Positions 1 to 52,493 of a DNA stretch of 64,000 bases are shown here, in pieces (position 1 is the stretch's first letter; every line of letters starts with the position of its first letter). The position numbers were made by a program, and so were the translations under genes. The notes beneath the pieces were generated by a model. The model did no database searches. It was not told the origin of the DNA and saw only the letters and a program-made list of their open reading frames with translations. Where the stretch lies: the NCBI GenBank assembly GCA_964558375.1, contig CAZLCD010000001.1, forward strand, positions 131,406 through 195,405, in the 5' to 3' direction. This DNA is from an uncultured Candidatus Saccharibacteria bacterium. Lineage in GTDB: Bacteria; Patescibacteriota; Minisyncoccia; Phycocordibacterales; PALSA-1337.

Positions 1-259
1 TGGGAATAATATATTATATCTCCATAATATGTAGATATTGTACAATTGTTATAGATCATTTTGATTATCTATTTCGTATCATGGTTTATAATCAATAATA
101 GTTTTTTCCTTCTCTCGCCTGTATAATTGAATATATATGGGAAAAAGATTATTACTAATATGTATCATTTCTGTAATAATATCAACTTGTCTCACTTTCT
201 ATAAAAATATGATTTTAAAAGAGTTTGAAGTCGTGGATTCTAGAACTTTAAATAACTAA

Positions 260-1171
260 ATGCACTGGATATTTATATCACTATCGGCACCTTTTCTCTG
301 GAGTATCTTAAATCATCTAGATAAATATCTTATATCTAAATATGTTGGAAATTCTGGTGTTGGTGGCCTATCAATATTTTCCTCAGGATTTGCTGTATTT
401 ACTCTGCCTATACTATATTTTTTTGATAAGAATATTTTTAATATAAATATATTAAATATCACCGTTCTTTCATTGACTGGTGTATTAACTGCTCTAGGCA
501 TCCTCTTTTATTTATATGCATTAAATAATGATGAGGCGTCATACGTAGTACCATTCTGGTTTCTAATACCTATTTTTAGTTATGTATTGGGTGTATTTAT
601 CCTAGGAGAACATATCTTCTTTGGTAAGATCATTGGTTCTATTATTACAATAATTGGCGCATTCGTTCTATCTCTGAAGTATGGTAAGGGTTTTCATGTT
701 AGAACAGGAACAGTTACTTTGATGATTGCATCAAGTTTTGTTTTAGCTCTAAATAACGTTCTATTTAAAGACTTAGCGATACATACATCATTTTGGCAAT
801 CTATGTTTTGGAATCAATTCGGTCTATTTATTTTTGGACTAAGTGCTTTTTTGTTTATTAAAAAGTATCGTCAGGATTTTATAAAGATAGTTAAATTTAA
901 CACCCTTGACCTGACTCTATTTAATATAGGCGGAGAAATCGTCCAAGTTGTGGCTGGTTTCTTTAATTATTATGCAGTTATACTTGCTCAAGTATCCCTA
1001 GTTTTATTAATAGAGTACACTTTCCAACCCCTCTTTGTTTTATTGGGAGGAATCATCTTAACAAAATTATTCCCATATATTACAAAAGAAGAGACTGGTC
1101 ATAAGTACACCCTCCAAAAGTTTTTTGCAATATCAATCATGGCTGTCGGGGTATATTTAATCGTGATATAA
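260..1171 (+). CDS. EamA/DMT-family-like 10-TM permease
   Basis: 303 aa, about ten hydrophobic helices in two halves, consistent with drug/metabolite transporter architecture. Confidence 0.5.
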   Translation: MHWIFISLSAPFLWSILNHLDKYLISKYVGNSGVGGLSIFSSGFAVFTLPILYFFDKNIFNINILNITVLSLTGVLTALGILFYLYALNNDEASYVVPFWFLIPIFSYVLGVFILGEHIFFGKIIGSIITIIGAFVLSLKYGKGFHVRTGTVTLMIASSFVLALNNVLFKDLAIHTSFWQSMFWNQFGLFIFGLSAFLFIKKYRQDFIKIVKFNTLDLTLFNIGGEIVQVVAGFFNYYAVILAQVSLVLLIEYTFQPLFVLLGGIILTKLFPYITKEETGHKYTLQKFFAISIMAVGVYLIVI

Positions 1172-1178
1172 TACTCCG

Positions 1179-1535
1179 ATGGAAATTAAGAAGAATACTC
1201 TGGTTAATAAATTTTTCTCTATACTTATATCGCTAACCCTCTTAAGTGCTTTTATTTCAACCTATTATAACTATATGATAAAGATGGAGCACAATTATTT
1301 AGTGGAGGAAAAATGTAATCCAGATACCGAAAAATGTTTCTATAGAGATTGCGATGGTGATCCAGACAGTTGTCCACCAAACAATTTTTCTTACTATAAA
1401 ATTTTTAACATAAAAGCTCATAATTTTAGTAGATGTGAAGATGGTTCTTGTAAAAATGTCTGTAGTCTAGATGAGTCGGTTTGTCAGTATATCTCTTGTG
1501 AAGAAAATGAAGGCAATATGTGTGTGGGTATGTAG
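1179..1535 (+). CDS. Small Cys-rich secreted/membrane-anchored protein (10 Cys)
   Basis: N-terminal hydrophobic segment then ten cysteines in a 75-aa D/E/N-rich tail; upstream of unknown ORF and sensor kinase. Confidence 0.4.
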   Translation: MEIKKNTLVNKFFSILISLTLLSAFISTYYNYMIKMEHNYLVEEKCNPDTEKCFYRDCDGDPDSCPPNNFSYYKIFNIKAHNFSRCEDGSCKNVCSLDESVCQYISCEENEGNMCVGM

Positions 1536-1551
1536 GTGTTCTTTTAAAAAA

Positions 1552-2397
1552 ATGTTCAGTAAAAAAAATATAGATGTAGACATAGACAACCTGATCTCTG
1601 AGCAGAAGATCTTCAGTGAATTTGTCTATACCGCATTAGATGATGCTGTAAACGAAATAAATAAAAGATCTTCAGATGTTATGTTAAAAAAATATCTAGA
1701 TAAAATGTTGCCGGCGGGGATCCCAAGTATTCTAGATAAGAAGAAGCACGCCTTTCTTTCTAGGTGTATAGCTACCCCTAATTATGAAACAAGTAGATTT
1801 ATAGATATTGTTTGTCTGATGGATGATTTTCAGCCATTGTTTTGGGAATATGGAATGGATAAGTTTAAGCCTAATGTTAATATCTCCAAACATAGTCTGG
1901 GAAAAATGACTTTTTGTGGCGGATTAGATAAGAAGGGAAATAAAAAAGTACAACATATTAATATTGTTGATTTTAATAAATATAATGGAAAAATACTCAA
2001 AGATATTAGGACTATTTGGGGGCAAGATTTAATAGATTTTCATCATGAGTTATTTGAGGAAGTATATGGAGATAGAAAAATCAAAACACTATCTTTTTTC
2101 GATGCTTCAGAGTGGTACTCTAATTCCGGCAGGGAAGTTGCTGTGTATTATAAATATATTTTGAGCCTTTTTCTAATTCATGGGGTCTTATTCGAAAACT
2201 TCCTTCTAGATGATTTATCAGAAAGACAGTTTATAAGGAATGTATTTTTGCCAGCTTTTATTGAAATAACAAAGGAAACAGGTAAAAAGCCGTTAATAGT
2301 TTCTCTTGGGCCCCCAAAAACAGAATCAGATAAATTCTGGCTATACTATCCACACAAACACACGGAATCAATAAAAGATAAACTAAATCTGATATAA
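1552..2397 (+). CDS. Hypothetical protein (start trimmed to internal ATG after upstream stop)
   Basis: Long ORF; first ATG that does not overlap upstream gene is at 1552; no recognised motifs. Confidence 0.4.
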   Translation: MFSKKNIDVDIDNLISEQKIFSEFVYTALDDAVNEINKRSSDVMLKKYLDKMLPAGIPSILDKKKHAFLSRCIATPNYETSRFIDIVCLMDDFQPLFWEYGMDKFKPNVNISKHSLGKMTFCGGLDKKGNKKVQHINIVDFNKYNGKILKDIRTIWGQDLIDFHHELFEEVYGDRKIKTLSFFDASEWYSNSGREVAVYYKYILSLFLIHGVLFENFLLDDLSERQFIRNVFLPAFIEITKETGKKPLIVSLGPPKTESDKFWLYYPHKHTESIKDKLNLI

Positions 2398-2404
2398 TAA
2401 AACA

Positions 2405-4048
2405 ATGGAACTTACATGTACAGGAGCTGTGGAATATGGATCAATAATATATTATTCTCATCTAATTCCAATTGGACTAATCATGGTATTATCTGTTTTT
2501 GTTTTTATAAAATCCGAATTTTCTTTTATATCAAGAATATTTCTCACATTCTCCAGTATATTTTCACTATGGTTATTGGGAGATGTTGTTGCTTGGGTAT
2601 CCACAGACTACAATATAATTTCATTTTTCTGGTCATCGCTTGACTATATAAATATACTATTCTATCTTTTTGCGCTATATTTCTTTTTTGTTGTTGTAAA
2701 AGGAAAAGATTTGTCTTTTATATATAAAATATTCCTAACTATATTATCTTTGCCAGCATGGTTTCTGACTATAAGTAATCTATCGATAGTGGAATTTGAT
2801 ACTACATGGTGTGAGGCTATAAATAATGAATTTCTAACAAACTATAAATTGGCCATAGAGGCTATCGTTATTGCATTCATAATTATTATTTCTATATACG
2901 AATTATTTAAAAAAATAGATTATTCACATAAAAAGAAAGTTGTCGTAGTTTCTGTTGCTCTAATTTTGTTCTTCCTTATATTTTCTATTACAGAATATAT
3001 ATCTAGCACCACAGGAGTCTACGAAATTAATTTATATAGTCTTTTTATACTTCCGGTATTTCTTTTTATAATCATATTTTCTACAATAAATCTTAAGGTT
3101 TTTAATATCAAACTAGCTGGCACACAGTTATTGGTCTACACAATGATTATTCTTGTCGGCTCACAATTCTTTTTTCTTGAAAATACTACGAGTCAAGTTT
3201 TAACCATTAGTACTTTTATATTATCGCTATCCTTTGGTGTTGTCCTAGTGAAAGATGCAAAACAGCAGGTCCTCCAACGCGAGCGTATCGAAGCTCTGGC
3301 TATCGACTTAAGAAAAGCCAATGATCGACTAACGGAGCTTGATATACAGAAAAGTGAATTCGTTTCGTTTGCCAGCCATCAGCTACGTGCGCCACTTACT
3401 GCTATTAAGGGCTACTCATCGCTACTTTTGGAAGGGGAGTTTGGGGCGATAGGGAAGGAAACAACCGAGGCCATTAGTCGTATTTTTGAAAGTTCAAAGA
3501 CATTGGCAACTATGGTTGATGACTATTTAAATATCTCAAGAATAGAGTTGGGTACGATGAAATATTCTTTCGATATGATAGATCTCAAAGAATTGGCTCA
3601 AAATGTTATAGCTGAACTCAAGCCAAATATTGAAAAAAGTAAGCTCGACTTTACTTTTGCAACCGATCCTGCGGATCCGAAAGAGAGATTTATGATACAT
3701 GCTGATAAAAATAATTTAAAGCAAGTTGTCGGCAACCTTATAGACAATTCTATAAAATATACTCCAAGTGGTTCCATCAAGGTTTTGCTTGCCAAAAATA
3801 AAGAAACAAGAAAAATTATTTTCTCTATCAAAGACACCGGAGTGGGGATAGATCCAGCTGTGATGCCAAAGCTTTTTTCAAAATTTGTCAGGGCACTCAA
3901 TGCTGATAAGCAGAATATTTATGGTACGGGCTTAGGGCTTTTCGTGGCTAAAGAGATAGTGCTCGCACACAAAGGCCGCCTTTGGGCTGAGTCAAAGGGG
4001 GAGGGTAAAGGCTCTACGTTTTTCTTGGAGATGGATATGGAGGTTTAG
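2405..4048 (+). CDS. Sensor histidine kinase with N-terminal multi-TM (about 8 helices) sensor
   Basis: H-box SHQLRAPLTAIKGY, HATPase motifs DTGVGI and GTGLGL; long hydrophobic N-terminal half. Confidence 0.8.
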   Translation: MELTCTGAVEYGSIIYYSHLIPIGLIMVLSVFVFIKSEFSFISRIFLTFSSIFSLWLLGDVVAWVSTDYNIISFFWSSLDYINILFYLFALYFFFVVVKGKDLSFIYKIFLTILSLPAWFLTISNLSIVEFDTTWCEAINNEFLTNYKLAIEAIVIAFIIIISIYELFKKIDYSHKKKVVVVSVALILFFLIFSITEYISSTTGVYEINLYSLFILPVFLFIIIFSTINLKVFNIKLAGTQLLVYTMIILVGSQFFFLENTTSQVLTISTFILSLSFGVVLVKDAKQQVLQRERIEALAIDLRKANDRLTELDIQKSEFVSFASHQLRAPLTAIKGYSSLLLEGEFGAIGKETTEAISRIFESSKTLATMVDDYLNISRIELGTMKYSFDMIDLKELAQNVIAELKPNIEKSKLDFTFATDPADPKERFMIHADKNNLKQVVGNLIDNSIKYTPSGSIKVLLAKNKETRKIIFSIKDTGVGIDPAVMPKLFSKFVRALNADKQNIYGTGLGLFVAKEIVLAHKGRLWAESKGEGKGSTFFLEMDMEV

Positions 4049-27373: not shown

Positions 27374-27940
27374 ATGAAATTCACTCAAAAGTTTATACTG
27401 GGCCGAAAATTAAACATGACACAAGTCTTCGATAAAGAAGGACTAGTTCAGCCTGTTACAATGGTTGAGATTTCTCCGGTTGCTGTTACTCAAGTTAGGA
27501 CCAAAGAAAATGATGGCTATACAGCTGTGCAAGTGTCTTCAAAAAAAGGTAAACTAGAAGTAAAAAAGGAGTTTAGAATGTCTGAGGTTAATAAAAAGGT
27601 CGGTGATTCCATTGATCTAAGCCAGTTTGTAGAAGGTGACACTGTAGAAGTAAGTGCTATCTCAAAGGGTAAAGGTTTTCAGGGTGTAGTTAAGAGACAC
27701 GGCTTCGGTGGAGGTCCTAGAACACACGGTCAGAAACATTCAGAGCGTGAGCCTGGTTCTATCGGAGGAGGACTTAGAAACAAAGTTCCAAAGAAAATGC
27801 GCATGGCAGGACGTATGGGTAGTGACAGGATAACTGTAAAGAATTTGAAGGTAATCCATATTGACTCAGCTACAAACATAATGTACATTCTAGGGGCAAT
27901 ACCTGGTAAAAGAGGTACCTTAGTAGAAATTAGGGGGTAA
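27374..27940 (+). CDS. rplC: 50S ribosomal protein L3
   Basis: GRKLNMTQVF...conserved L3. Confidence 0.9.
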   Translation: MKFTQKFILGRKLNMTQVFDKEGLVQPVTMVEISPVAVTQVRTKENDGYTAVQVSSKKGKLEVKKEFRMSEVNKKVGDSIDLSQFVEGDTVEVSAISKGKGFQGVVKRHGFGGGPRTHGQKHSEREPGSIGGGLRNKVPKKMRMAGRMGSDRITVKNLKVIHIDSATNIMYILGAIPGKRGTLVEIRG

Positions 27941-29756: not shown

Positions 29757-29825
29757 TAAAATCATTAAGTCTACAAAATCTTTCATAGATCGGTTCGTAA
29801 GTTTCCTGATCTATAAGATAAATTC

Positions 29826-29853
29826 TTGACTTAATGAGATATTTTGCTAGTAT
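29826..29853 (+). promoter_or_regulatory. Putative internal promoter (TTGACT-16-TAGTAT) before rpsS
   Basis: Consensus-like hexamers in the 105-bp rplB-rpsS spacer; adjacent 7-bp inverted repeat ATAGATC/GATCTAT. Confidence 0.3.
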
Positions 29854-29861
29854 AAAAAACT

Positions 29862-32177: not shown

Positions 32178-32549
32178 ATGATACAACCACGATCAATAGT
32201 AAGAATAACAGATAATTGCGGAGCAAAAATTGGCCGTATTTTCAAAGTGCTCGGAAGTTCAAAGAAGCGATACGCGGAGATAGGCGACCTTGTGATCCTC
32301 TCTGTACAAAAGGCAGAACCAAGAAAGGCTATCAAGAAGAAGGATGTATTACAGGGTGTAGTAGTTCGCCAAGTAAAAGCTTTTCGAAGAAAGGATGGTT
32401 CTTATATTCGCTTCGACGAAAACGCTGTAGTTATCCTTGAAAAAGGCAAGAAGGAGCCGATAGCTGGACGTATCTTCGGCCCTATCCCTCGCGAGCTTGG
32501 TGAAAAAGGTTTTCAAACTATTGCTTCAAAGGCACCAGAGATTGTATAA
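32178..32549 (+). CDS. rplN: 50S ribosomal protein L14
   Basis: MIQPRSIVRITDNCGAK. Confidence 0.95.
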   Translation: MIQPRSIVRITDNCGAKIGRIFKVLGSSKKRYAEIGDLVILSVQKAEPRKAIKKKDVLQGVVVRQVKAFRRKDGSYIRFDENAVVILEKGKKEPIAGRIFGPIPRELGEKGFQTIASKAPEIV

Positions 32550-32565
32550 ATTTTAATAAAAGATT

Positions 32566-32826
32566 ATGAAAATAAAAAAGGATGACAATGTAATAGTGCT
32601 AGCAGGAAAGGATAAGGGTAAAACCGGTAAGGTTATAAAAGCTATGCCAAAAGAAAATCGCGTAGTTGTTTCTGGTGTAAATATGTTTAAGAAAAACCAG
32701 AGAGCTCGTAAGCAAGGTCAAAAGGGTCAGGTTATAGAGGTAAATGGTTCTATCAATGTCTCAAACGTCGCGCTTGTGAGTGAATTTAAAAAAGAAACTA
32801 AAGCAAAGAAGGTCGCTAAGAAATAA
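32566..32826 (+). CDS. rplX: 50S ribosomal protein L24
   Basis: [23 protein letters not shown]. Confidence 0.9.
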
Positions 32827-32835
32827 AGAAATAAT

Positions 32836-33411
32836 ATGAAACCACATACACATACAGCAAAGCCAACATTTGAAATGAATAAGGAGTCCTTCAAGGCTCT
32901 CAAGGAAAAGTTCGACTACAAAAATGTCATGCAAGCGCCAAAGCTTACTAAGCTCGTGATCAGTACTGGTACGGGATCAGTGAAAGACAAGAAAAAGATC
33001 GAACTTATAGCTGATCGTCTAGCAAAGATCACAGGTCAGAAACCAGCTCCTCGTTCAAGTAAGAAATCAATTGCTTCTTTCAAAGTGCGACAAGGTGACC
33101 TTGTTGGATATCAGATCACTCTTCGTGGCAAGAGAATGGCAGACTTTATCGACAAGCTTGTGCATATCGCTCTTCCTCGTACAAAAGACTTTCGTGGTAT
33201 CTCAAAGACTGCTGTAGATGAAATGGGGAACTATACTCTAGGTATTAAGGAACACACTATCTTCCCAGAAACCGCAGATGAAGATCTAAAGGATGTTTTT
33301 GGTTTTGCTATGACTATCGTTACTACTTCAAAGAAGAAAGAAGAAACTCTAGCTTTCCTAGAATATCTCGGTTTTCCATTTAAGAAAGAGGAAGTGAAGA
33401 AGGGGAAGTAG
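32836..33411 (+). CDS. rplE: 50S ribosomal protein L5
   Basis: Conserved L5. Confidence 0.9.
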   Translation: MKPHTHTAKPTFEMNKESFKALKEKFDYKNVMQAPKLTKLVISTGTGSVKDKKKIELIADRLAKITGQKPAPRSSKKSIASFKVRQGDLVGYQITLRGKRMADFIDKLVHIALPRTKDFRGISKTAVDEMGNYTLGIKEHTIFPETADEDLKDVFGFAMTIVTTSKKKEETLAFLEYLGFPFKKEEVKKGK

Positions 33412-33551
33412 GGTTGAAAAATTTGTTTATTTTAGTTAACTTTGATATCATTCTCTTTATCATCTGAAGACTGGAAAATCCCCGCCCAGCGCTCTCCTAG
33501 AGAGAGGCATGTATGTGAGAACTTGGGGTCTCACCAGAACTAAAAACGGTT

Positions 33552-33576
33552 GGAAGTTTACCTTCCAGCCTTTTTA
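33552..33576 (+). terminator. Hairpin + T-run on plus strand inside foreign insert
   Basis: GGAAGtttacCTTCC then agccTTTTT. Confidence 0.35.
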
Positions 33577-33619
33577 GTTCGCTAGAAGTAGGAGGTGAGT
33601 TTGGGAAAATAAAAAGGGA

Positions 33620-33656
33620 GGTAATAAAAAACAGGCGGTCATTTCTGAGCGCCTGT
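33620..33656 (-). terminator. Rho-independent terminator of minus-strand foreign ORF
   Basis: CAGGCG...CGCCTG stem followed by T6 on minus strand, directly downstream of ORF stop at 33716. Confidence 0.55.
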
Positions 33657-33715
33657 GTAAATCTTCGAAGCATTGAGATTTCTCCGGTTGCTTCACCGAG
33701 TGGACAAACCACCAT

Positions 33716-34150
33716 TCATTGCAAGAGGTACCAATCTGCATTGGCTTGCCAAGACTGACTGTCTTGCCGTATAAACCTAAATGCATTCCTGAGTGTGAGT
33801 TCATACCCAGCTTTAATGCCAGGTTCCAACATCATAACTTGGGGTTTCTGTTGCGTGCGCCAGTCACTGACAATGACTGTGCCCAGTTTGGTGACCTCAT
33901 CAACCATGAAGACACGAGAGGGTGAATCCAGTTTCTCTAAACTGTGCACCTCAACAAGGTCGCCCGTACGGAGCTTTTGTTGCTCCTGGACATATTGGGT
34001 GATGACGTGCTGGGTGGTGGTATGCAAACCAGCAAACCACCGCGCTTCTTCTTCGGCACTGATTGCCATCTGTCGCAAGAAGATAAGTGTGCTTGTCAGC
34101 AGCACGGCGGCGATAGCTGTTCCGATAGACAAGTAATCACGAGTTTTCAT
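33716..34150 (-). CDS. Membrane-anchored hypothetical protein of foreign (GC-rich, proteobacterial-like) composition inserted in ribosomal operon
   Basis: 144 aa, N-terminal TM (LSIGTAIAAVLLTSTLIFL); G+C visibly about 50% vs host about 35-40%; Q/R/W/A-rich unlike neighbouring K/I/N-rich proteins. Confidence 0.55.
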   Translation of the reverse strand: MKTRDYLSIGTAIAAVLLTSTLIFLRQMAISAEEEARWFAGLHTTTQHVITQYVQEQQKLRTGDLVEVHSLEKLDSPSRVFMVDEVTKLGTVIVSDWRTQQKPQVMMLEPGIKAGYELTLRNAFRFIRQDSQSWQANADWYLLQ

Positions 34151-34436
34151 AGATATAGATATTTTGTATTTTGTTTAGTGCAGTCATGATCTACTATTTT
34201 TCACTCAAGCGAGTGGTAATAGATCAATTTCCACACTAAACCTTTTCAAGGTGCTCAACACTATCTTTCTACATGATAGCATACTATACAGTATATGTCA
34301 AGATGACATTATTTACCTTATCTGATAGTATAAGCCAATCGTAAATAAGTGAGTGAAATAAAGAAAAAGTAGTGATCGGAAGCACAACCGCAAGGTATAG
34401 CTAACCAATCCTTATTTTTGTTAAAAAATCGTAAAA

Positions 34437-34622
34437 ATGGCAAAAAAATCAACAATAGCAAGATCAAGTAAAGCACCGAAATTCAAAAGTCGAGTGGTTC
34501 GACGTTGCTTCCGTTGCGGTCGAAAGAATGGCTATATGAGAGACTTTGACCTTTGCCGTATTTGTTTTAGAGAGTTCGCTAATGAAGGAGTTATTCCAGG
34601 AATAAAAAAATCATCATGGTAA
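34437..34622 (+). CDS. rpsN: 30S ribosomal protein S14 type Z (zinc-binding, 61 aa)
   Basis: CxxC...CxxC (RCFRCGR...CRICFRE). Confidence 0.9.
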   Translation: MAKKSTIARSSKAPKFKSRVVRRCFRCGRKNGYMRDFDLCRICFREFANEGVIPGIKKSSW

Positions 34623-35008
34623 CAGACCCTATCGCAGATTTTATCGTAAGAATCAAGAATGCTAGTGATGCTCGCAAGGCTTCAGTTTCTATACCTTACT
34701 CTATTTTAAAAGAAAGTATTGCTCACACTTTGGTAAAGGGCGGGTATATCAATGCTGTTGAAAGTAAGGGTAAGAAAATCGACAAGACACTAGAGATCAC
34801 ACTTACTTATATCGGCAAAGAGCCAAGACTTCATGGTATCGATCGTATCTCTAAGCCTTCTCGAAGAATTTATCAAAAATCAAAAGACATCAGAATGTTT
34901 AAGAGTGGTTTTGGAAATGTAATACTTTCTACACCACAAGGTATTTATCTTGATGCTGATGCAAAGAAAGCAAAGGTCGGAGGCGAGGTTTTATTTAAAA
35001 TCTGGTAA
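34616..35008 (+). CDS. rpsH: 30S ribosomal protein S8
   Basis: MVTDPIADFIVRIKNA. Confidence 0.9.
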   Translation: MVTDPIADFIVRIKNASDARKASVSIPYSILKESIAHTLVKGGYINAVESKGKKIDKTLEITLTYIGKEPRLHGIDRISKPSRRIYQKSKDIRMFKSGFGNVILSTPQGIYLDADAKKAKVGGEVLFKIW

Positions 35009-35019
35009 TAAAAAATTAT

Positions 35020-35553
35020 ATGTCACGAATCGCAAAAAAACCTATTTTGATACCAGAAAAAACCGATGTCTCTTTTGCATCAGGAATTTTGACTGTCAAA
35101 GGTCCTTTGGGGGAAATTAAAAAATCTCTACGCTCTGAGATTGATGTAAAGATAGACGGCGGACAGATTTCTCTTATACCAGAAAGACAATCTCTAGATA
35201 TACTTGCTCTATGGGGAACATACGCTTCTCATATACGTAATATGATAGAGGGAGTTCATAAAGCTTTCGAAAAGAAACTGATCGTAGAAGGTATCGGTTT
35301 TAAGTCTGATGTAAAAGGCACCGAGCTACACCTTGCTCTAGGTTTCTCTCATCCAGTTGTCAAAAAGATTCCAGAAGGATTGAAGGTTACAGCCGAAAAG
35401 AATATCATTACAGTTTCTGGAATTGATATTGAAAAGGTGGGACAGTTTGTAGCTCAGGTTCGTGCCTTGAAAAAGCCAGAACCTTATAAGGGTAAGGGTA
35501 TTCGATATAGTGATGAAACTATACGAAGAAAGCAAGGTAAGAAATCTGTATAA
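35020..35553 (+). CDS. rplF: 50S ribosomal protein L6
   Basis: Conserved L6. Confidence 0.9.
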
Positions 35554-35895: not shown

Positions 35896-36519
35896 ATGGA
35901 TAAAGATACACAAACAATTGAACAAGAGGTACCAGTAATTGCGGATATTGTTGCACCTACTCCTTCTTCTGCAGCTCCTGCTCCAAGACAATCTTTCAGA
36001 GACTCACGCCCACCTCGTGGTGGCAAAAGACCTGCTCGTTCTGATAAAGAAAGAGTAAAGCCTGAGTTCGATACAAAGATTATTGCTATCCGTCGCGTAA
36101 CTCGAGTAGCATCTGGAGGTAGAAGATTTACTTTTTCTGTAGCAGTAGTTTCTGGAGATAGAAAGGGTAAGGTTGGAGTTGGTCTTGGTAAGGCTGGAGA
36201 CACTTCTCTTGCTATAGACAAGGCGACAAGAAATGCAAAGAAAAATATGATAAAAGTTACACTTTCTCAGTCTATGAATATACCTCATATGGTTGAAGCA
36301 AAGTATTCTAGTGCAAGAGTTATGATCATGCCAGCAAGAGGACGAGGGGTAGTAGCTGGAAGTGCTGTGCGCAATGTTATCGAACTTGCAGGTATTAAGG
36401 ATGTCTGTGCAAAACTCCTTTCTGGAAGTAAGAACAAGCTCAATATAGCTCGTGTTACTATCAAGGCTCTCGAGAAACTTTCCAAAAATCCTCGAACGAT
36501 TTTATCAGAAAAAATATAA
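35896..36519 (+). CDS. rpsE: 30S ribosomal protein S5 (with about 50-aa Pro/Ala/Arg-rich N-terminal extension)
   Basis: Conserved S5 core IRRVTRVASGGRRF. Confidence 0.9.
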   Translation: MDKDTQTIEQEVPVIADIVAPTPSSAAPAPRQSFRDSRPPRGGKRPARSDKERVKPEFDTKIIAIRRVTRVASGGRRFTFSVAVVSGDRKGKVGVGLGKAGDTSLAIDKATRNAKKNMIKVTLSQSMNIPHMVEAKYSSARVMIMPARGRGVVAGSAVRNVIELAGIKDVCAKLLSGSKNKLNIARVTIKALEKLSKNPRTILSEKI

Positions 36520-36528
36520 TACACTACC

Positions 36529-36969
36529 ATGCAACTCAATAATCTAATTCCAAAAACAAAAAACAAAAAGGCAATGCTTGTTGGTCGTGGAGGTAAAAGA
36601 GGTAAAACTTCAGGACGAGGTGGAAAGGGTCAGACAGCTCGTGCCGGTAACAAGAAGCGTCCAGAACTCAGAGACTTTATTAAAAGAATTCCTAAGCTTC
36701 GTGGTCGTGGAGTCAATCAAAACAAAAGTCCAAACACAAAGCCAACTATCGTAAACTTAAGTGATATCGAAGTTGTATTTGAAAATGGTTCTATAGTTTC
36801 TCCTGCTACTCTTATTGAAAAAAGAACCATCTCTACATTGGATGGTAGAATACCTCAAGTAAAGATTCTTGGTTCTGGAGATTTTACAAAGAAAATAACC
36901 ATCGAAGGTTGTCTGATTTCAGCTCAAGCAAAAGAGAAGGTGGAAAAGGCTGGGGGTATGGTAAAATAA
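36529..36969 (+). CDS. rplO: 50S ribosomal protein L15
   Basis: Conserved L15; follows rpsE directly (no rpmD/L30 between). Confidence 0.9.
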   Translation: MQLNNLIPKTKNKKAMLVGRGGKRGKTSGRGGKGQTARAGNKKRPELRDFIKRIPKLRGRGVNQNKSPNTKPTIVNLSDIEVVFENGSIVSPATLIEKRTISTLDGRIPQVKILGSGDFTKKITIEGCLISAQAKEKVEKAGGMVK

Positions 36970-44477: not shown

Positions 44478-44887
44478 TGACTGTAGTATAATACATCTAT
44501 GGAAAATATTACACTTATAATCGCAGCGGCCATTTTCGGATTTTTATTTTTTGGACCTCATACAAAATCTGCAAAACCGAAGGATGATAAAAAAGGCGGA
44601 GGAAAAGATGCAAAGAAATAAATTTAAATTAATTTAAAAAAAAGTTATACACTTTTTATTTTATTTTTTTCACTAATTTTATTTATTTAGTGTTACACTA
44701 TAGTGAGTGGTCGATCAAATACTTTTAATATAAAAAATATTTTCACTCATATGGCAAAAGCAAAAAAGAAAGTTACAAAGAAGTCTTCAAGAAAAGTTTC
44801 AAAGAAGACAAAGAAAAGCAAAAAGAGCACAAAGCGATCAAGATAGTTTTTGCGAAAGTTTTTACAAATAAAATTGTAAACAAAAAG

Positions 44888-44909
44888 CATCTCGAAAGAG
44901 GTGTTTTTT
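44888..44909 (+). terminator. Plus-strand hairpin + T6
   Basis: CATCTCgaaaGAGGTG followed by TTTTTT; downstream of 31-aa Lys-rich micro-ORF (44751-44846). Confidence 0.35.
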
Positions 44910-44926
44910 GATTATAAAAAAGAAAA

Positions 44927-44960
44927 GACCCTCGCGTGAGAAGTCCGTGAGGGCTTTTCA
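44927..44960. terminator. Bidirectional hairpin terminator
   Basis: GACCCTC...GAGGGC stem flanked by A-run upstream and T-run downstream. Confidence 0.45.
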
Positions 44961-44980
44961 TGAGAGGGTCGTAAATACTC

Positions 44981-45394
44981 CTAATCTTGCGTGGGATTTT
45001 GTTGAAGTTCAGGTTTGTTTGCAGACTCGAGTTTTCTCAGAAACTCGCGAAGGAAACACCTACCTACATTTGTTGCCAGCCACTGTACGGTAGCAGCCAC
45101 AATACGGGTATCCCTTGTGGAAAACTTTCTGTTGTAGCGGTGAAGGCCTTTGGTAAGTGCTAATCGTGATACCTTACCACACTCTTCTGTGCATTCATGC
45201 AAGATCTGATCTAAAGGAACCAGGCCAAAGTTTATTAATGGGTCCCTTACATTTTCTTGGGCCCATAAATGGACCATAATATGTTCAGCATCTTTTCTTC
45301 TATTTTTTTCTTTAATTTCCTTAAGACGATGTAATGCATTTGGCATAGTCACCCCTTCAGGAGACTCCGACTTTTTACCTGTTTTTCTTTTCAT
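44981..45394 (-). CDS. Hypothetical protein immediately downstream of tmRNA 3' end
   Basis: 137 aa; composition (R/H/E/L-rich, somewhat higher GC) differs from neighbours. Confidence 0.4.
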   Translation of the reverse strand: MKRKTGKKSESPEGVTMPNALHRLKEIKEKNRRKDAEHIMVHLWAQENVRDPLINFGLVPLDQILHECTEECGKVSRLALTKGLHRYNRKFSTRDTRIVAATVQWLATNVGRCFLREFLRKLESANKPELQQNPTQD

Positions 45395-45489
45395 AATTTC
45401 CGTATTTGTTTTTGTTGTGTCTGGTATTGCCCAGCGTTGTTCAAGCTGCGGGTAGCATATGATTTAACTTGGCTACTGTCAAATTTTGT

Positions 45490-45906
45490 GGAGATGGGCG
45501 GAATCGAACCGCCGTGCAAATGAAGTTTCATAATACTTCTACATTGTATAGATTACTTTAGCGAGACAAGCCTTGCGACCTATCTCTTTTAACTTATACA
45601 CTTTAAAATAAACAAAATATATATAAGCGATTCCCCAAGTTTCAAACTAGAGACAGGGAAGAGTCAGTAGTTCTATGTCTAATTTATATCACCCCAACAT
45701 TGAACTAGACAAAATCAATGTGGAATGTCGCTTAAGCCGTAGCTAGAGCGAAAGTGAAATCTCGTGATCCAAAATATGGAGACACAGCAGACTTTACTTT
45801 TGTAAGTGCTGATTCAGCATTTAACATTTTCTATAAGTTTAAAGAGTTTATAGAGCTCTACAATGCATAGTATGAAATACCTCAAATGTCGAGGCCTTTC
45901 ATCCCC
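45490..45906 (-). ncRNA. ssrA: tmRNA (SsrA)
   Basis: 5' GGGGAUGAAAGGCCUCGACAUUUGAGG (tmRNA 5' consensus-like) pairs with 3' tRNA-like end GGCGGUUCGAUUCCGCCCAUCUCCA (T-arm + acceptor); directly downstream of smpB. Confidence 0.75.
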
Positions 45907-48822: not shown

Positions 48823-48896
48823 GCGCCTGTAGCTCAGTTGGTTAGAGCATCGAGCTTATACCTCGAGGGTCCCACGTTCGAATCGTGGCAGGCGCA
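48823..48896 (+). tRNA. tRNA-Ile (anticodon UAU)
   Basis: Cloverleaf: acceptor GCGCCTG/CAGGCGC, D-arm GCTCAGTTGGTTAGAGC, anticodon loop CTTATAC, T-arm CCACGTTCGAATCGTGG. Confidence 0.8.
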
Positions 48897-48973
48897 CAAA
48901 AGGCTTGATTTTGATGTGGGGGTGGGTATATAGTGTGTGGTAGTAAACTGCAACAACTTACAACTAAATATTT

Positions 48974-49384: not shown

Positions 49385-51673
49385 TTATTCCCAATGCTTA
49401 ACATCACTTTCTCTAGCTTTTAAATAATCTTTCACTTGAGGATATTTAATTAAATTTATATCTTCTTCAACCAAGATTTTTGCTTCAGTTCTTGCTGCCT
49501 CTACCATTTTAATATTTTGCAATGCTTCCATAGCTATATCAGACATTCCCCATTGTTTGCCACCAGACAATTCTCCAGATCCTCGAAACTTAAGATCATA
49601 TTCTGCGAGTTCAAATCCATTCTTTGCGGTTTTTAAGGCATTGAGGCGGTCTATCGTCTTGTCAGATTTTGTTTCGGCAAAGACATAACAATAAGCTTGA
49701 TCATTGGAACGGATCACGCGTCCGCGTAGCTGATGTAGCTGTGCCAGGCCGAAACGCTCCGCACCTTCTATGATAATAACGGTGGCGTTCGGCACATTGA
49801 CCCCGACTTCGACTACCGATGTGGCACAAAGAATATTTATTTTGCCCAATTTAAAATCCGCCATCACGCGATCCTTTTCTGCAGGTTTCATTTTGCTATG
49901 AAGTATACCTATTTCATATTCAGGGAAAACTTTACTCTTCAACCTCTTGGCTTCCTCTTTCACTGACTTGGCATTGATCGCTAGTTCTTTGTCTGGATCT
50001 GGTTCATTGATTCTTGGACAGATGACATAGGCTTGTCTTCCCAAATTTAATTCAAGACGAATTTTCTCATAAGTTTCTTCTCTTTTATTTGGTGTTACTA
50101 TATCGGTTATTATAGGTTTTCTGCCATGGGGCATTTGATCTAGTAAAGTAAGGTCTAGGTCGCCATATATTGTCAAAGCCAATGTGCGAGGGATTGGTGT
50201 GGCAGTCATGGATAAGAGATGAGGGACTCTCAGAAAAGAACTATTCTCATCAGCACGCATAAAAGCCTGTTGGCTTTTTGCTATTCTCGGCCCATCGGCC
50301 TGCGAAATGCTTCCTCGAATAGTCTTTTCTGCGAGTCCCTGTATTTCTTTCTGCACTAATGAAGCCCTTTGTTTGAGACCAAAGCGATGTTGTTCATCGA
50401 TGATCACATAAGCTAGATGTTTAAATTTTACAGCTTTCTGTATAAGTGCATGTGTGCCTATGAGGATGGGGATTTCTCCGAGTGCTACCCATTTTAAAAG
50501 TTGTGTGCGAGAAATATCTGTCCAGCCCTTCGGATTTAATTTTGAAGGAAATTTCCTACAGCCACTTCCTGTGATAAGGCCGATTTGAATTCCTAAATAC
50601 GAAAAATATTGAATAAAAGATTCAAAGTGTTGGGTTGCCAATATTTCTGTGGGACACATATAGGCGACCTGAAGGTGGCCGAACTTTCTCTGCACGCCAT
50701 TTTCTTTTGGAGTGGTTGTAACTACGGCGTAGGCAGTAGAGGCGGCTACGGCGGTTTTGCCGGAGCCGACATCTCCTTCAAGTAGTCGAGACATGGCATG
50801 ACCTCTTTTAAAATCTTCTACTATGGTCGCTATAGACTTCCTCTGTGCCTCGGTGGCTTCAAAAGGAAAGCGTTTTATGAACTCATGCATATTTTTCTCT
50901 GATGGTTCAATAATGAAGGCTGGATTTTTCTCATATTGTTTGCGAGTAATCTGCTTTTCTAATTGAATAAAAAATATTTCTTCAAAGGCAAAGCGCTTAC
51001 GTGCAGAAGCTGCATCTTCATTTTTCATGGGCGTATGTATCCAGATCAAGGCGGTCTTGAGACTGGGTAGATTGTATTTTGAGAGAATCTCTTTTGGTAT
51101 CGGATCTGTTATCTGATCCAATATTCCTTCTTTAAAAATTTCGATGATTTTGTGATATATCCAGTTTGAAGTGATACCTCTGGACTCTGGATAAATGGGG
51201 TAGAGGGTATGGTTCTGTCCATCATCTTTAAAAAGTGAATCTCCAACGCCTGTTGGCAATTTATTCACTATCTCTATTTTTGGATTTGAAAAATACAGTT
51301 CCTGAGTTTTTTTTCTTTCCGAAACTTTACCTTCAATCCTCACCAAAGCATTCTCCGCTGTCATCTTCGCAATATATGGTTGATTGAACCAGACGCAATG
51401 TATCTTTCCACTCTCATCTTCTACCCAAGCGTCGGCCATGGCGATTTTTGTTTTGAACCCTTTGCTGGTTTTGAGCTTGGATATTTTTCCAAAAATAACA
51501 GCAGTGTCTCCAGCGACAAGTGAAGAGATGTTTTTGGTTTCGGAAGTGTCTCCATAACGAGCAGGGAAATGATAAAGTAGATCTCGCACAGTCTCTATAC
51601 CGAGCTTTTTTAGAGCGATTTTCTGTGGAGGGATAAGGCGAGCATTGTCTGTAATCAGTGAATCGTATTGCAT
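49385..51673 (-). CDS. recG: ATP-dependent DNA helicase RecG
   Basis: Wedge domain N-terminus, helicase motifs GDVGSGKT, DEQHRFG, 762 aa. Confidence 0.9.
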   Translation of the reverse strand: MQYDSLITDNARLIPPQKIALKKLGIETVRDLLYHFPARYGDTSETKNISSLVAGDTAVIFGKISKLKTSKGFKTKIAMADAWVEDESGKIHCVWFNQPYIAKMTAENALVRIEGKVSERKKTQELYFSNPKIEIVNKLPTGVGDSLFKDDGQNHTLYPIYPESRGITSNWIYHKIIEIFKEGILDQITDPIPKEILSKYNLPSLKTALIWIHTPMKNEDAASARKRFAFEEIFFIQLEKQITRKQYEKNPAFIIEPSEKNMHEFIKRFPFEATEAQRKSIATIVEDFKRGHAMSRLLEGDVGSGKTAVAASTAYAVVTTTPKENGVQRKFGHLQVAYMCPTEILATQHFESFIQYFSYLGIQIGLITGSGCRKFPSKLNPKGWTDISRTQLLKWVALGEIPILIGTHALIQKAVKFKHLAYVIIDEQHRFGLKQRASLVQKEIQGLAEKTIRGSISQADGPRIAKSQQAFMRADENSSFLRVPHLLSMTATPIPRTLALTIYGDLDLTLLDQMPHGRKPIITDIVTPNKREETYEKIRLELNLGRQAYVICPRINEPDPDKELAINAKSVKEEAKRLKSKVFPEYEIGILHSKMKPAEKDRVMADFKLGKINILCATSVVEVGVNVPNATVIIIEGAERFGLAQLHQLRGRVIRSNDQAYCYVFAETKSDKTIDRLNALKTAKNGFELAEYDLKFRGSGELSGGKQWGMSDIAMEALQNIKMVEAARTEAKILVEEDINLIKYPQVKDYLKARESDVKHWE

Positions 51674-51705
51674 TTAGGCATTATACGATATAATCTACTA
51701 ATATT

Positions 51706-51793
51706 GGAACCGTGGTGGAGTGGTCTAACATACCTCTTTGCTAAAGAGGCAGGCCCTTTAAAGGTCTCGAGGGTTCGAATCCCTCCGGTTCCG
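51706..51793 (+). tRNA. tRNA-Ser (anticodon GCU), long variable arm
   Basis: Acceptor GGAACCG/CGGTTCC, anticodon loop TTGCTAA, long extra arm, T-arm GAGGGTTCGAATCCCTC. Confidence 0.8.
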
Positions 51794-51989
51794 CAATAGT
51801 TCTTGAGAATGGCTTTTGCCATTCGAAAGAATTATCGGGAAAACGAGGAGATGAGAAAGCCGGACTGAGCGAAGGCAAAGGAGGCGGGGTCGCAAGCGCT
51901 TTCAGCAGAAAGCGACTTGTGACCGAATCCCTAATATCAATAAAATAGAGCCACTTCCACTTGGGAAGCAGCTCCGGCTTTTGGATCGC

Positions 51990-52376
51990 CTAGCGACTCG
52001 GTTTACCTTGCATATCATCGGTAACCTCGACGAGATTTTGGCGAGTGACTCCACTAATGATTTCGGCTTCGTCCTCACCAAAACAGAAACACTCACCAAG
52101 CTTTGGATAGCCATGCCTTCTCCACCACCTCGCCGCCCATGGCCGATATCTTTCTAGTGTGATAATTGCTCGATCTTGTGGAACACTGAATCCAAGACGA
52201 TTGTGAGTACGTTCTTTGTCACTTATGGCATCACGCTCAAATTCTCCATCTGGATAGCCAAGGTACGGTTCACATGGAAGAGTCAACCAAAGCCATGCTC
52301 GGCGGACTTCAAAAGGTGCTTCGCCTGCTGGTACTTTTGTGATTCTGATTCGCCCGGTTGCTGATTCATCTGTCAT
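51990..52376 (-). CDS. Hypothetical protein of atypical (R/W/G/P-rich, GC-rich) composition adjacent to tRNA-Ser
   Basis: 128 aa; local G+C clearly higher than flanks. Confidence 0.45.
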   Translation of the reverse strand: MTDESATGRIRITKVPAGEAPFEVRRAWLWLTLPCEPYLGYPDGEFERDAISDKERTHNRLGFSVPQDRAIITLERYRPWAARWWRRHGYPKLGECFCFGEDEAEIISGVTRQNLVEVTDDMQGKPSR

Positions 52377-52493
52377 TGTGTAAAGTCCTTTCGGTTAATT
52401 GTTTGTCTAAAGTAGATACTATCAGAATTTTCTGGAATAGCCAAAAATTACCCTAATCGTATAAAAGTACTACGATTGTGGTAAAATAACCCC

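Follow-up and report, generated by a model that had tools for sequence, protein, structure and literature searches.

A variable cargo slot between rplE and rpsN in the ribosomal protein cluster of a Patescibacteria lineage, and the probably horizontally gained cassette that fills it in one strain

The S10-spc-alpha cluster is a textbook case of frozen gene order, and it forms the backbone of phylogenies built from concatenated ribosomal proteins and of binning checks in bacteria of the candidate phyla radiation (CPR). How, then, has a block of 1,025 bp come to lie between rplE (uL5) and rpsN (uS14) in the metagenome-assembled genome (MAG) of an uncultured bacterium deposited as Candidatus Saccharibacteria (GenBank assembly GCA_964558375.1, contig CAZLCD010000001.1)? 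We analyzed 64,000 nucleotides (nt) of this contig (positions 131,406 to 195,405), referred to here as the window, and all positions given below count from its first letter. An earlier note on this DNA, made from the sequence alone, had described the block as one GC-rich cassette in a junction that is normally only a few bases long, and had left the choice between a real horizontal insertion and a chimeric or contaminated assembly. The explanation that accounts best for our results, and that we hold to be probably correct, is a hypervariable and transcriptionally insulated cargo slot in which rpsN has its own promoter and leader and which, in this strain, holds a horizontally gained cassette with an open reading frame (ORF) of 144 amino acids (aa), named ORF144 here. 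The block is thus one allele of a hypervariable slot and is more telling in that context than as a lone insertion.

The spacer (33412-34436) begins directly after rplE (32836..33411, plus strand), the left core gene of the slot, and ends at rpsN (34437..34622, plus strand), which encodes a uS14 of the Zn-ribbon type (61 aa), opens the downstream transcription unit, and bounds the slot as its right-hand core gene. Both genes were identified as ORFs, with Pfam matches of identical products to Ribosomal_L5/L5_C and Ribosomal_S14, respectively. Ribosomal genes lie head to tail on both sides, with S19, L22, S3, L16, L29, S17, L14, L24, and L5 to the left and S14, S8, L6, L18, S5, L15, and SecY to the right. 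These bounds, the ORF, and the signals around it agree with those listed in the earlier note, and its single 1-kb cassette resolves into a mosaic of three parts. The left module (33412..33591, 180 bp) is the 3' end of an older cargo, includes a promoter-like element, a GC-rich structured stretch, and a terminator for rplE, and is common to sibling contigs with other cargo. The cassette proper (33592..34293, minus strand, 702 bp) was found in this strain only, the siblings diverging at 33592 (contig L176) and rejoining at 34294 (contig L174). The right module (34294..34436, 143 bp) carries a predicted sigma70 promoter and a structured leader with a U-run and is conserved in relatives.

The insertion is real and not a chimera. 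The exact ORF144 protein is present in the Logan assemblies of 2 runs, SRR12762303 and SRR12762304, and the 2 Logan contigs (L001 and L002) are identical to the window at 100% over 1,300 and 1,240 bp, covering rplE, the whole spacer with both junctions, and the start of rpsN, with the 702-bp cassette 100% identical. Contigs from other samples also support the flanks, with 3 of them (L176, L177, and L178) matching at 98-99% nucleotide identity from upstream of rplE through 33591 or 33488 before diverging and a fourth (L174) having identities of 99.3% as far as 33415 and of 95% from 34294 onward. The unusual composition of the block, the near absence of relatives of ORF144, and the origin of the sequence from a MAG could all be taken to suggest that a mis-assembly or binning error had put a GC-rich contaminant into the ribosomal operon. 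We consider this extremely improbable, as 2 run-level assemblies made with a different assembler yield the same sequence over both junctions, other samples carry the left junction as far as 33591 and the right flank beginning at 34294, the cassette occupies the exact site of other cargo in siblings and in dozens of relatives, and its predicted promoter is of the clade's own type.

Is the site itself exceptional? We scanned one genome per species with uL5 and obtained 80 loci, all from Patescibacteria/Paceibacteria MAGs (Taylor-, Kaiser-, Adler-, and Zambryskibacteria and similar), which together with 73 metagenome loci gave 86 junctions bounded by both uL5 and uS14. The spacer ranged from 21 to 4,849 bp, with 35 junctions at or below 250 bp, 11 of 251-600 bp, 20 of 601-1,500 bp, and 20 above 1,500 bp. 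Empty alleles accordingly made up 35 of the 86, and the expectation of a junction of a few bases fails in this clade, where 51 of 86 relatives exceed 250 bp. In at least 10 further loci, no rpsN was found within 6 kb of rplE. As a control, 16 adjacent junctions from L2 to SecY were measured in the same loci. Fourteen of these were tight (medians from -10 to 29 bp) and had no spacer above 300 bp save 3 outliers, whereas L5|S14 was expanded to a median of 502 bp (51 of 86 above 300 bp) and L2|S19 to a median of 825 bp (39 of 52 above 300 bp). The variability is therefore specific to the interval, since only these 2 of the 16 junctions are expanded, and the supposed singular break of a conserved operon is a general hypervariable cargo slot in the clade.

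The cargo is diverse, with 127 of the 190 gap ORFs being singletons that had no relative among the others. Cargo that could be recognized included MazF/PemK, HigB/Gp49, NYN, Fic/SoFic, ORF6N (PADLOC candidate PDC-S05), and KilA-N, as well as a reverse transcriptase, PIF1/RecD-like helicases, and an IS30-like transposase. We also identified SPFH proteins, LuxR and TrmB regulators, trios of extracytoplasmic function (ECF) sigma factor, anti-sigma factor, and fn3 protein, Laminin_G_3 and TIG surface proteins, and asparaginase. An identical 191-aa uL5 is followed by 3 different cargos, namely, ORF144 (L175), a 274-aa KilA-N protein (L174), and a 160-aa MuF_C-like protein (L176), in contigs whose flanks are 99% identical as far as 33415 or 33591 and then once more from 34294. 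Behind uL5 variants of 99.5% and about 90% identity lie a HigB/Gp49 toxin with a small partner, 4 minus-strand genes including ORF6N, or a 172-aa MuF_C-like gene. ORF144 was absent from every other locus examined, including contigs with identical uL5, and the synteny comparison found other cargo at the same site in relatives, so that no relative carries the same insert with host-like composition; their inserts differ.

The alleles are also mosaic. The window and L176 have the left module in common and differ in cargo and right module; L174 and L176 have about 150 bp of right module in common and differ in left module and cargo; and the left module of L174 is common to L006 and L007. Mosaic alleles with 99% identical flanks are what repeated homologous exchange predicts, and we infer that cargo turns over by recombination between the shared modules and flanks. 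In empty alleles of a related genus (L179, L181, L184, and L185), the rplE stop is followed by a predicted terminator (GCCCCGAAAGGGGC plus T-run), the rpsN promoter, and the leader, and an occupied allele (L186) has the same terminator, then an ORF6N gene, and then the rpsN promoter. Cargo thus lies where one transcription unit has ended and the next has yet to begin, which is the position where insertion costs least.

The second expanded junction, rplB|rpsS, is a variable slot of its own, with a spacer of 21-2,741 bp in 52 relatives (L016-L094) and of 105 bp in the window (29757-29861). A conserved predicted promoter of rpsS, TTGACTTAAT...ATTTTGnTAGTAT (also written TTGACTTAAT..ATTTTGCTAGTAT), lies at 29827-29855 of the window, and the rpsS mRNA is predicted to be nearly leaderless because the promoter ends about 9 nt before the rpsS ATG. 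Conserved internal promoters were recognized upstream of both rpsN and rpsS in the closest relatives of the window.

The kinds of element involved are all known, namely, hotspots of horizontal gene transfer (HGT) flanked by core genes, moron-like cassettes, and ribosomal protein leaders. Like HGT hotspots, the slot is a fixed interval between conserved core genes that holds different accessory genes in each strain, has empty and mosaic alleles, and is enriched in toxin-antitoxin, phage-related, and candidate defence genes; the same core genes bound it in 86 loci, and its variability is specific to the interval. Unlike them, it is set within the S10-spc cluster, whose gene order is usually the most rigid in prokaryotes, its units are tiny and often a single gene, and a second analogous slot exists at L2|S19. 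In Gammaproteobacteria and Bacilli, insertions in the cluster were found mainly between operons, and the within-operon case analyzed was nrdHEF in rpoBC (PMC8046335). Our literature search, of partial coverage, found neither an rplE|rpsN hotspot nor an rpsN leader, which does not prove their absence from the literature. The ORF144 unit resembles a phage moron in having its own predicted promoter and terminator, deviant GC content both overall and at third codon positions (GC3), a place between genes of a tight cluster, and homologues that are also stand-alone units; it differs from one in its location, a chromosomal ribosomal operon without neighboring phage genes, and in matching nothing in PHROGs or BFVD.

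How is rpsN expressed whatever lies upstream of it? The earlier note had placed a promoter for the downstream half of the operon between 34151 and 34436, and one is indeed predicted at 34303..34331 on the plus strand (ATGACA-17-TAGTAT with an upstream TG; -35 box at 34303-34308, -10 box at 34326-34331; promoter scan). It had been thought to be new, and this part does not stand, as the element appears ancestral and is kept in empty and occupied relatives alike. The pattern TTGAC-N17-T.TG.TA..AT is kept in 12 of 12 aligned sequences (the window and 11 relatives), whatever lies upstream, and in a pattern scan, nearly all loci whose upstream sequence was long enough had it 58-79 nt ahead of the leader. 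In empty alleles, the -35 box lies only 1-30 nt past the rplE stop. From the comparison of these alleles, we take both promoter and leader, as read in the sequence, to be ancestral.

The leader (34372..34424, plus strand) is predicted to form helix P1, a 1x2 internal loop, helix P2, an internal loop, a variable P3 hairpin, and a U-run. P1 is GAUYGG/CCAAUC (GAUUGG/CCAAUC) and P2 is AGC/GCU; an outer helix of A-rich stretch and U-run starts from about 34362, where the upstream A-rich stretch can pair with the U-run. Across the 14 genome copies, all of them upstream of rpsN and past the conserved promoter, 98.1% of cells are paired vs. 92.6% in shuffles, and 4 pairs have compensatory changes, a covariation score that none of 500 shuffles reached; 3 of these pairs are in P1, and P3 varies among CG, GC, UA, and UG. 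The exact pattern GATTGGAAGC-N10-40-AGCTAACCARTC was found on 73 metagenome contigs, with the rpsN start 10-109 nt downstream in 69 of them. The resulting 87 copies (L009-L033 and L101-L173) contain 70 different P3 inserts of 14-43 nt, 96% of which fold to a hairpin, often with GNRA loops (mean z score, -2.9), and in 72 of the 73 metagenome copies, 5 or more of the 8 nt past P1 are T. The internal-loop nucleotides GGAAGC...AGCUAACC are invariant, and the apical hairpin is free in sequence and length.

No Rfam 15 family matched the leader at E <= 1 (cmscan of 32500-35500), the chance-level matches in 32.5-35.5 kb being discarded (MIR8001 on the terminator hairpin, and STnc410). A search of 83 sources with the covariance model R1 returned only the 14 loci on which it had been trained, and the leader would thus be confined to a sub-clade with roughly 70% uL5 identity or more. 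In the window, P1 has a C.A mismatch (GAUCGG) and the -35 box is weakened (ATGACA). We had considered these changes as compensation for the loss of read-through after the ORF144 insertion, an idea we rejected, since L174 has both with other cargo; they are thus lineage traits.

Ribosomal protein leaders that act by attenuation include the L20 leader of infC-rpmI-rplT in Bacillus subtilis and the S10 leader with L4 in Escherichia coli. The invariant loop nucleotides, the free apical helix, and the terminator-like tail before a ribosomal protein operon lead us to read the rpsN leader as autoregulatory, and it is a probable candidate for a transcription attenuator responsive to a ribosomal protein. 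Like known leaders of this kind, it is a conserved structured 5' untranslated region (UTR) before a ribosomal protein operon, with invariant loops, a variable peripheral helix, and a hairpin followed by a U-run; it departs from them in sequence and structure and matches no Rfam 15 family. As to which protein it would bind, S8 is our first guess; it is encoded just downstream of rpsN (34616-35008). The E. coli S8 operator of the spc operon overlaps the rplE start and acts on translation. The 2 elements belong to the same operon family, and the unpaired A followed by A-U and G-C pairs in the leader loosely recalls helix 21; the leader differs in preceding rpsN, in its terminator-like U-run, and in having the 2-nt bulge on the other side of the A-U and G-C pairs. 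The genes of the window are mostly without Shine-Dalgarno sequences. Two surveys of ribosomal protein leaders (PMC7247131, PMC11109978) contain no rpsN or S14 leader.

The left module preserves traces of an earlier occupant. The frame at 33497..33591 (minus strand) is the remnant of a MuF_C/PBECR2-like gene, comprising its last 31 codons and the stop, and 30 of the 31 aa are identical to the C-terminus of the 160-aa minus-strand ORF that is intact in L176. The latter is 53% identical over its full length to the 172-aa cargo protein of L010, and both proteins have weak Pfam matches to MuF_C/PBECR2 (nuclease-toxin-like). Minus-strand ORFs of 72 aa (33497-33715) and 76 aa (33574-33804) and plus-strand ORFs over ORF144 were rejected as genes, as none of them matched a protein family; the 72-aa ORF is accounted for by the stump of the MuF_C-like gene. 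Embedded in the stump is a hairpin with T-run on the plus strand (33537..33580; stem 33548-33570, T-run to 33576) that is predicted to block rplE read-through, as the earlier note had proposed. It lies within an inverted repeat with 21-nt arms, and the fold is stronger on the plus strand (9 pairs vs. 6 on the minus strand in the scan), with G.U there vs. a C.A mismatch on the minus strand. The left module as a whole folds with a z score of -3.2.

Just past the rplE stop, we read a plus-strand promoter-like element (33423..33451; TTGTTT-17-TATCAT, preceded by TTTGA), a degenerate copy of the clade's TTGAC...TnTGnTAnnAT promoter that is antisense to the 3' end of the old cargo. Better copies occur at the same place in L006, L007, L174, L009, and L010, and the promoter scan gave an alternative call near the rplE stop (TTAACT-16-TATCAT, 33436-33463). 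Homology to L174, L006, and L007 ends 4 nt past the rplE stop codon. As a separate observation, several occupied alleles carry a plus-strand copy of the clade's extended -10 promoter directly past the rplE stop, with a structured stretch of 55-110 nt and then a predicted terminator behind it (window, 33423-33580; L006, L007, and L174; L009, 4573-4670; L010, from 4594). Judged from its sequence, such a copy may be either a stranded old rpsN promoter or the promoter of a short RNA complementary to the 3' end of the cargo gene, which is convergent and often toxin-like.

Within the cassette, ORF144 (33716..34150, minus strand) forms what reads as a complete monocistronic unit of predicted promoter, 5'UTR, coding sequence, and terminator. 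The promoter and structured 5'UTR occupy 34151..34301 (minus strand), with the -35 box TTGACA at 34301..34296 and the -10 box TATCAT at 34278..34273, spaced by 17 nt and with a TG extension, matching the consensus at 11 of 12 positions (34301..34273; promoter scan). The 5'UTR extends 122 nt past the -10 box and is predicted to be highly structured (fold z score of -4.4 vs. shuffles). The intrinsic terminator (33625..33656, minus strand) was predicted in the earlier note also and folds as ACAGGCGCUCA-GAAA-UGACCGCCUGU, a stem of 10 bp capped by a GAAA loop, with U6 behind it (33656..33625; inverted-repeat arms 33631-33641 and 33646-33656). As the -35 hexamer lies in sequence common to L174 and L176 (from 34294), the right junction of the cassette falls in or at this hexamer (TGTCAAgATGACA).

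Composition sets the unit apart, in line with the earlier view of a GC-rich block. In 200-bp windows, 33500-34100 has a GC content of 0.44-0.51 vs. about 0.37 in the flanks, and ORF144 has a GC of 0.492 and a GC3 of 0.538, while the 73 long ORFs of the window have a mean GC of 0.386 +/- 0.033 and a mean GC3 of 0.326 +/- 0.051. Its GC3 is the highest among the 73, at about +4 standard deviations. The anomaly of the 702-bp cassette as a whole is milder, with a GC of 0.449 (rank 4 in GC at the 700-bp scale) and a trinucleotide distance ranking 56 among 633 windows, and the region at 51.4-52.4 kb equals it in GC richness. We found no DNA similarity to 33592-34293 in about 185 related loci and no match to the whole spacer in a search of plasmid DNA. 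With these results, a recent horizontal insertion of a compositionally foreign, self-contained gene unit, one of the 2 options in the earlier note, is supported.

The cassette shows no sign of an element able to move itself. The repeat search at its ends returned only short AT-rich repeats at chance level, its ORFs have no transposase domain, and no integrase ORF was found within 30-38 kb, a stretch whose long ORFs can all be read as genes for ribosomal proteins or SecY. Inspection of the sequence for an integron cassette gave no attC-like imperfect palindrome with RYYYAAC/GTTRRRY cores, and ORF144 has its own predicted promoter, unlike the promoterless ORF of an integron cassette. A further feature was noted in the 3'UTR of ORF144, where a 20-nt stretch (33673..33692, minus strand; exact 20-mer TTGAGATTTCTCCGGTTGCT) pairs with 27465-27484 (BLAST E = 3e-4 within the window, with no extension) in a gene at 27374-27940, which we take to be uL3-like from our own reading of the sequence and its operon position, no family search having been run. 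The ORF144 transcript would be perfectly antisense over these 20 nt to the uL3-like mRNA, 6 kb upstream.

What does ORF144 encode? The protein is predicted to have an N-terminal transmembrane anchor, as the earlier note had seen, a helical stalk, and a putative SH3/Tudor-like beta-barrel, and it ends in a conserved C-terminal tail F.FI...A.A.WY..Q. A word-indexed search of 5.8 billion proteins matched only ORF144 itself, and exhaustive HMMER over 1.84 billion representatives returned 2 relatives (E of about 1e-16, 38-41% identity), to which a profile search added 2 more homologues, for a family of 5 members in all. These proteins are all 139-144 aa long and have in common a hydrophobic N-terminal anchor after basic residues, a VGD(L/I)VEV strand, and the C-terminal motif. 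The sole homologues being 4 metagenomic proteins with unassigned hosts, the gammaproteobacterial character once suggested for the protein has no backing. Modeled from the single sequence, ORF144 gave a poor AlphaFold result (predicted local distance difference test score of 50.6), which an alignment of the 5 sequences rescued; the model has an N-terminal helix at 3-40, consistent with the hydrophobic helix in the sequence, and fold searches with it gave generic SH3/Tudor-like similarity only. Searches of Pfam, PHROGs, NCBIfam, PADLOC, and PDB sequences gave nothing significant for ORF144 or its family, with no PHROG match below E = 0.01 and no BFVD structural match for ORF144, and none in PADLOC, Pfam, or NCBIfam to a known anti-phage defence or toxin-antitoxin protein. 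Weak N-terminal matches of the family to PCB_OB, CcmE, and MecC were set aside, as they merely echo a transmembrane anchor plus a small barrel. From the model, ORF144 is predicted to be anchored in the membrane in type-II orientation (N-in/C-out), with an SH3-like barrel outside the cytoplasm, and its architecture and context tentatively hint, with rather low confidence, at an accessory protein of the envelope, for instance one acting in exclusion, defence, or surface interaction.

The 4 homologues sit in unrelated contexts, each standing alone with a predicted promoter (TTGAC-17-TAnAAT), a 5'UTR of 80-120 nt rich in hairpins, and a predicted terminator, and the family behaves as mobile cargo of variable regions. 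The homologous genes have a GC3 of 0.60-0.61 irrespective of their flanks (0.33-0.49). Taking in the cassette of the window (33716-34272, minus strand) and those on L095, L098, and L099, the family's cassettes span a GC3 of 0.54-0.61 in surroundings of 0.33-0.49 GC, which could reflect either recent arrival from a GC-richer donor pool or a codon usage maintained by the family. We observed that homologue P0007 (in the region 5309-6408 of L098) lies 290 bp downstream of a transfer-messenger RNA (tmRNA) gene whose 3' end is partially repeated in between (TTCCCCATCTCCAC) and which has an IS1595 transposase on its far side, and that homologue P0009 (in the region 2380-3052 of L099) lies past a tmRNA-3'-like CCCCCCCATCTCCACCA; the 5'UTRs of both are conserved and hairpin-rich. 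These positions directly behind a tmRNA 3' end or its copy, in one case with an IS1595 transposase nearby, recall the genomic islands found next to tmRNA and tRNA genes, unlike the cassette of the window, which sits in the rplE|rpsN slot, 11 kb from the tmRNA of the window (45486-45906).

We propose that, in this Paceibacteria lineage, the S10-spc cluster would have been split into separate transcription units at rplB|rpsS and rplE|rpsN. The rpsN gene would be served by its own sigma70 promoter and then by a structured leader with U-run, probably an attenuator controlled by a ribosomal protein. The few bases from the rplE stop and terminator to the rpsN promoter would be transcriptionally insulated and so could have become a cargo slot in which genes are gained, replaced, and lost. 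In the window, the slot would hold the 3' stump of the MuF_C/PBECR2-like gene, still supplying the terminator against rplE read-through, and a horizontally acquired cassette of 702 bp on the opposite strand that would have displaced most of the older gene, with its right junction at the -35 hexamer; the ORF144 unit would have had to come in by an illegitimate event in which about 130 codons of that gene were lost. Going further, Paceibacteria might possess 2 dedicated insulated slots, rplB|rpsS and rplE|rpsN, in which the near-invariant ribosomal genes serve as universal homology arms, one-gene cassettes of accessory, toxin, or defence type are swapped between strains and even between species, and expression of the ribosomal genes downstream is kept independent of cargo through the internal promoter and a new type of rpsN leader attenuator sensing a ribosomal protein. 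We regard this wider proposal as possible, yet somewhat more doubtful than not.

Several points weigh against this account. All promoter, terminator, and attenuator calls are consensus matches or folds. The assemblies of SRR12762303 and SRR12762304 possibly derive from the same reads as the MAG, in which case they test the assembler and not the sample. The recurrent cargo (the ECF trio and ORF6N) diverges about as much as its flanks, which fits vertical descent inside sub-clades as well as exchange, and the comparison of cargo and flank identity gives no direct proof of exchange between lineages. For the leader, the covariation of P1 and P2 comes from single sequences (L009 and L028), the metagenome pattern fixes P1 and P2 and so leaves only P3 and the U-run as independent there, and its core is presumably not in register with the S8 site in helix 21 of E. 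coli 16S rRNA. Finally, the repeat search found no integrase, terminal repeats, or target duplication at the cassette that would point to a route of entry.

One could also suppose that a site-specific mobile element (integron-like, an insertion sequence or miniature inverted-repeat transposable element, or an integrase-driven islet) targets a sequence at the rpsN promoter and that the slot is its attachment site instead of a gap that passively tolerates inserts. The precision of entry speaks for this, as cargo always comes in at the same points to within a few nt, either past the rplE stop or terminator or ahead of the -35 box of the rpsN promoter, the L176 cargo is flanked on both sides by AAGTA(G)TGTCAA, and the right junction of the window coincides with TGTCAAgATGACA, in which two -35 boxes form a palindrome. 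Genes of IS30-like or reverse-transcriptase type are among the occupants, and ORF144 relatives are found near tmRNA, which integrases classically target, alongside a partially repeated tmRNA 3' end. In and around the cassette of the window, however, we found no integrase or transposase, nothing resembling attC, no terminal inverted repeats, and no convincing duplication of a target; the cargo varies extremely and in most cases includes no recombinase genes, and the sharing of left and right modules is that predicted for homologous exchange, so that we judge a site-specific element unlikely. Vertical inheritance from an operon split long ago, with ORF144 as a resident gene of the lineage, would suit the recurrence of the ECF sigma/anti-sigma/fn3 trio and ORF6N in several genomes, where they track flank divergence, and the age of the promoter and leader in the clade. 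It is very hard to reconcile with ORF144 itself, which is absent elsewhere, even from contigs with identical uL5 and 99% identical flanks, has overwritten part of a gene still intact in L176, deviates in GC3 by +4 standard deviations from the genes of the window, and has its 4 homologues in unrelated contexts; we therefore think this reading highly improbable.

A separate question concerns the rpsN hairpin and U-run, which might be a constitutive element, acting as an mRNA stabilizer or as a terminator for something upstream, and not a sensor of a ribosomal protein. In the folds, the U-run pairs with the upstream A-rich stretch as in ordinary bidirectional terminators, and the leader is presumably not an in-register copy of the rRNA site of its candidate ligand, E. 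coli S8. On the other hand, it lies downstream of a conserved promoter and at a short distance from rpsN in 69 of 73 and 14 of 14 copies, and invariant loops combined with 70 apical variants are the usual signature of protein recognition, which makes a constitutive element fairly unlikely in our view. The preferred reading thus remains that of an insulated cargo slot followed by the promoter and candidate attenuator of rpsN and holding, in this strain, a horizontally gained ORF144 cassette.

Other features of the window were noted outside the slot. Its first 3 kb (1-3000) are very AT-rich (GC, 0.27-0.32) and have the most deviant trinucleotide profile of the window, and its most GC-rich stretch (51400-52400; GC, 0.47-0.48) holds a tRNA-Ser and a 128-aa minus-strand ORF. 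Adjoining the 3' end of the tmRNA gene (45486-45906, minus strand), the stretch 44478-45486 holds a 137-aa ORF (44981-45394) with no obvious identity and a very AT-rich spacer (GC of about 0.31) that ranks with the most deviant trinucleotide windows; this stretch may be another variable spot. The rpmD gene (L30) is absent between rpsE and rplO, which are 9 bp apart (36519-36529), an absence that is typical of CPR bacteria and agrees with the Patescibacteria labels of the relatives. ARAGORN identified a tRNA-Ile with anticodon TAT (UAU) at 48823-48897; most bacteria read AUA by a lysidine-modified CAU tRNA. At the gathering level, Rfam matches in the whole window were limited to the tmRNA and 2 tRNAs, and no rRNA was found in the window.

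For the biology of these bacteria, the finding has several consequences. Two strain-variable slots explain why CPR assemblies break or look contaminated exactly there, within a cluster on which binning and phylogeny rely. The slots are a precise place in which to seek accessory, defence, and surface genes that differ between near-identical strains of episymbionts, and the slot described here would be a natural neutral landing pad, with universal homology arms, for future CPR genetics. The candidate new ribosomal leader RNA, with its 87 copies, makes the autoregulation of ribosomal proteins in CPR bacteria directly testable, and ORF144 represents a very rare family of proteins that are predicted to be anchored in the membrane.

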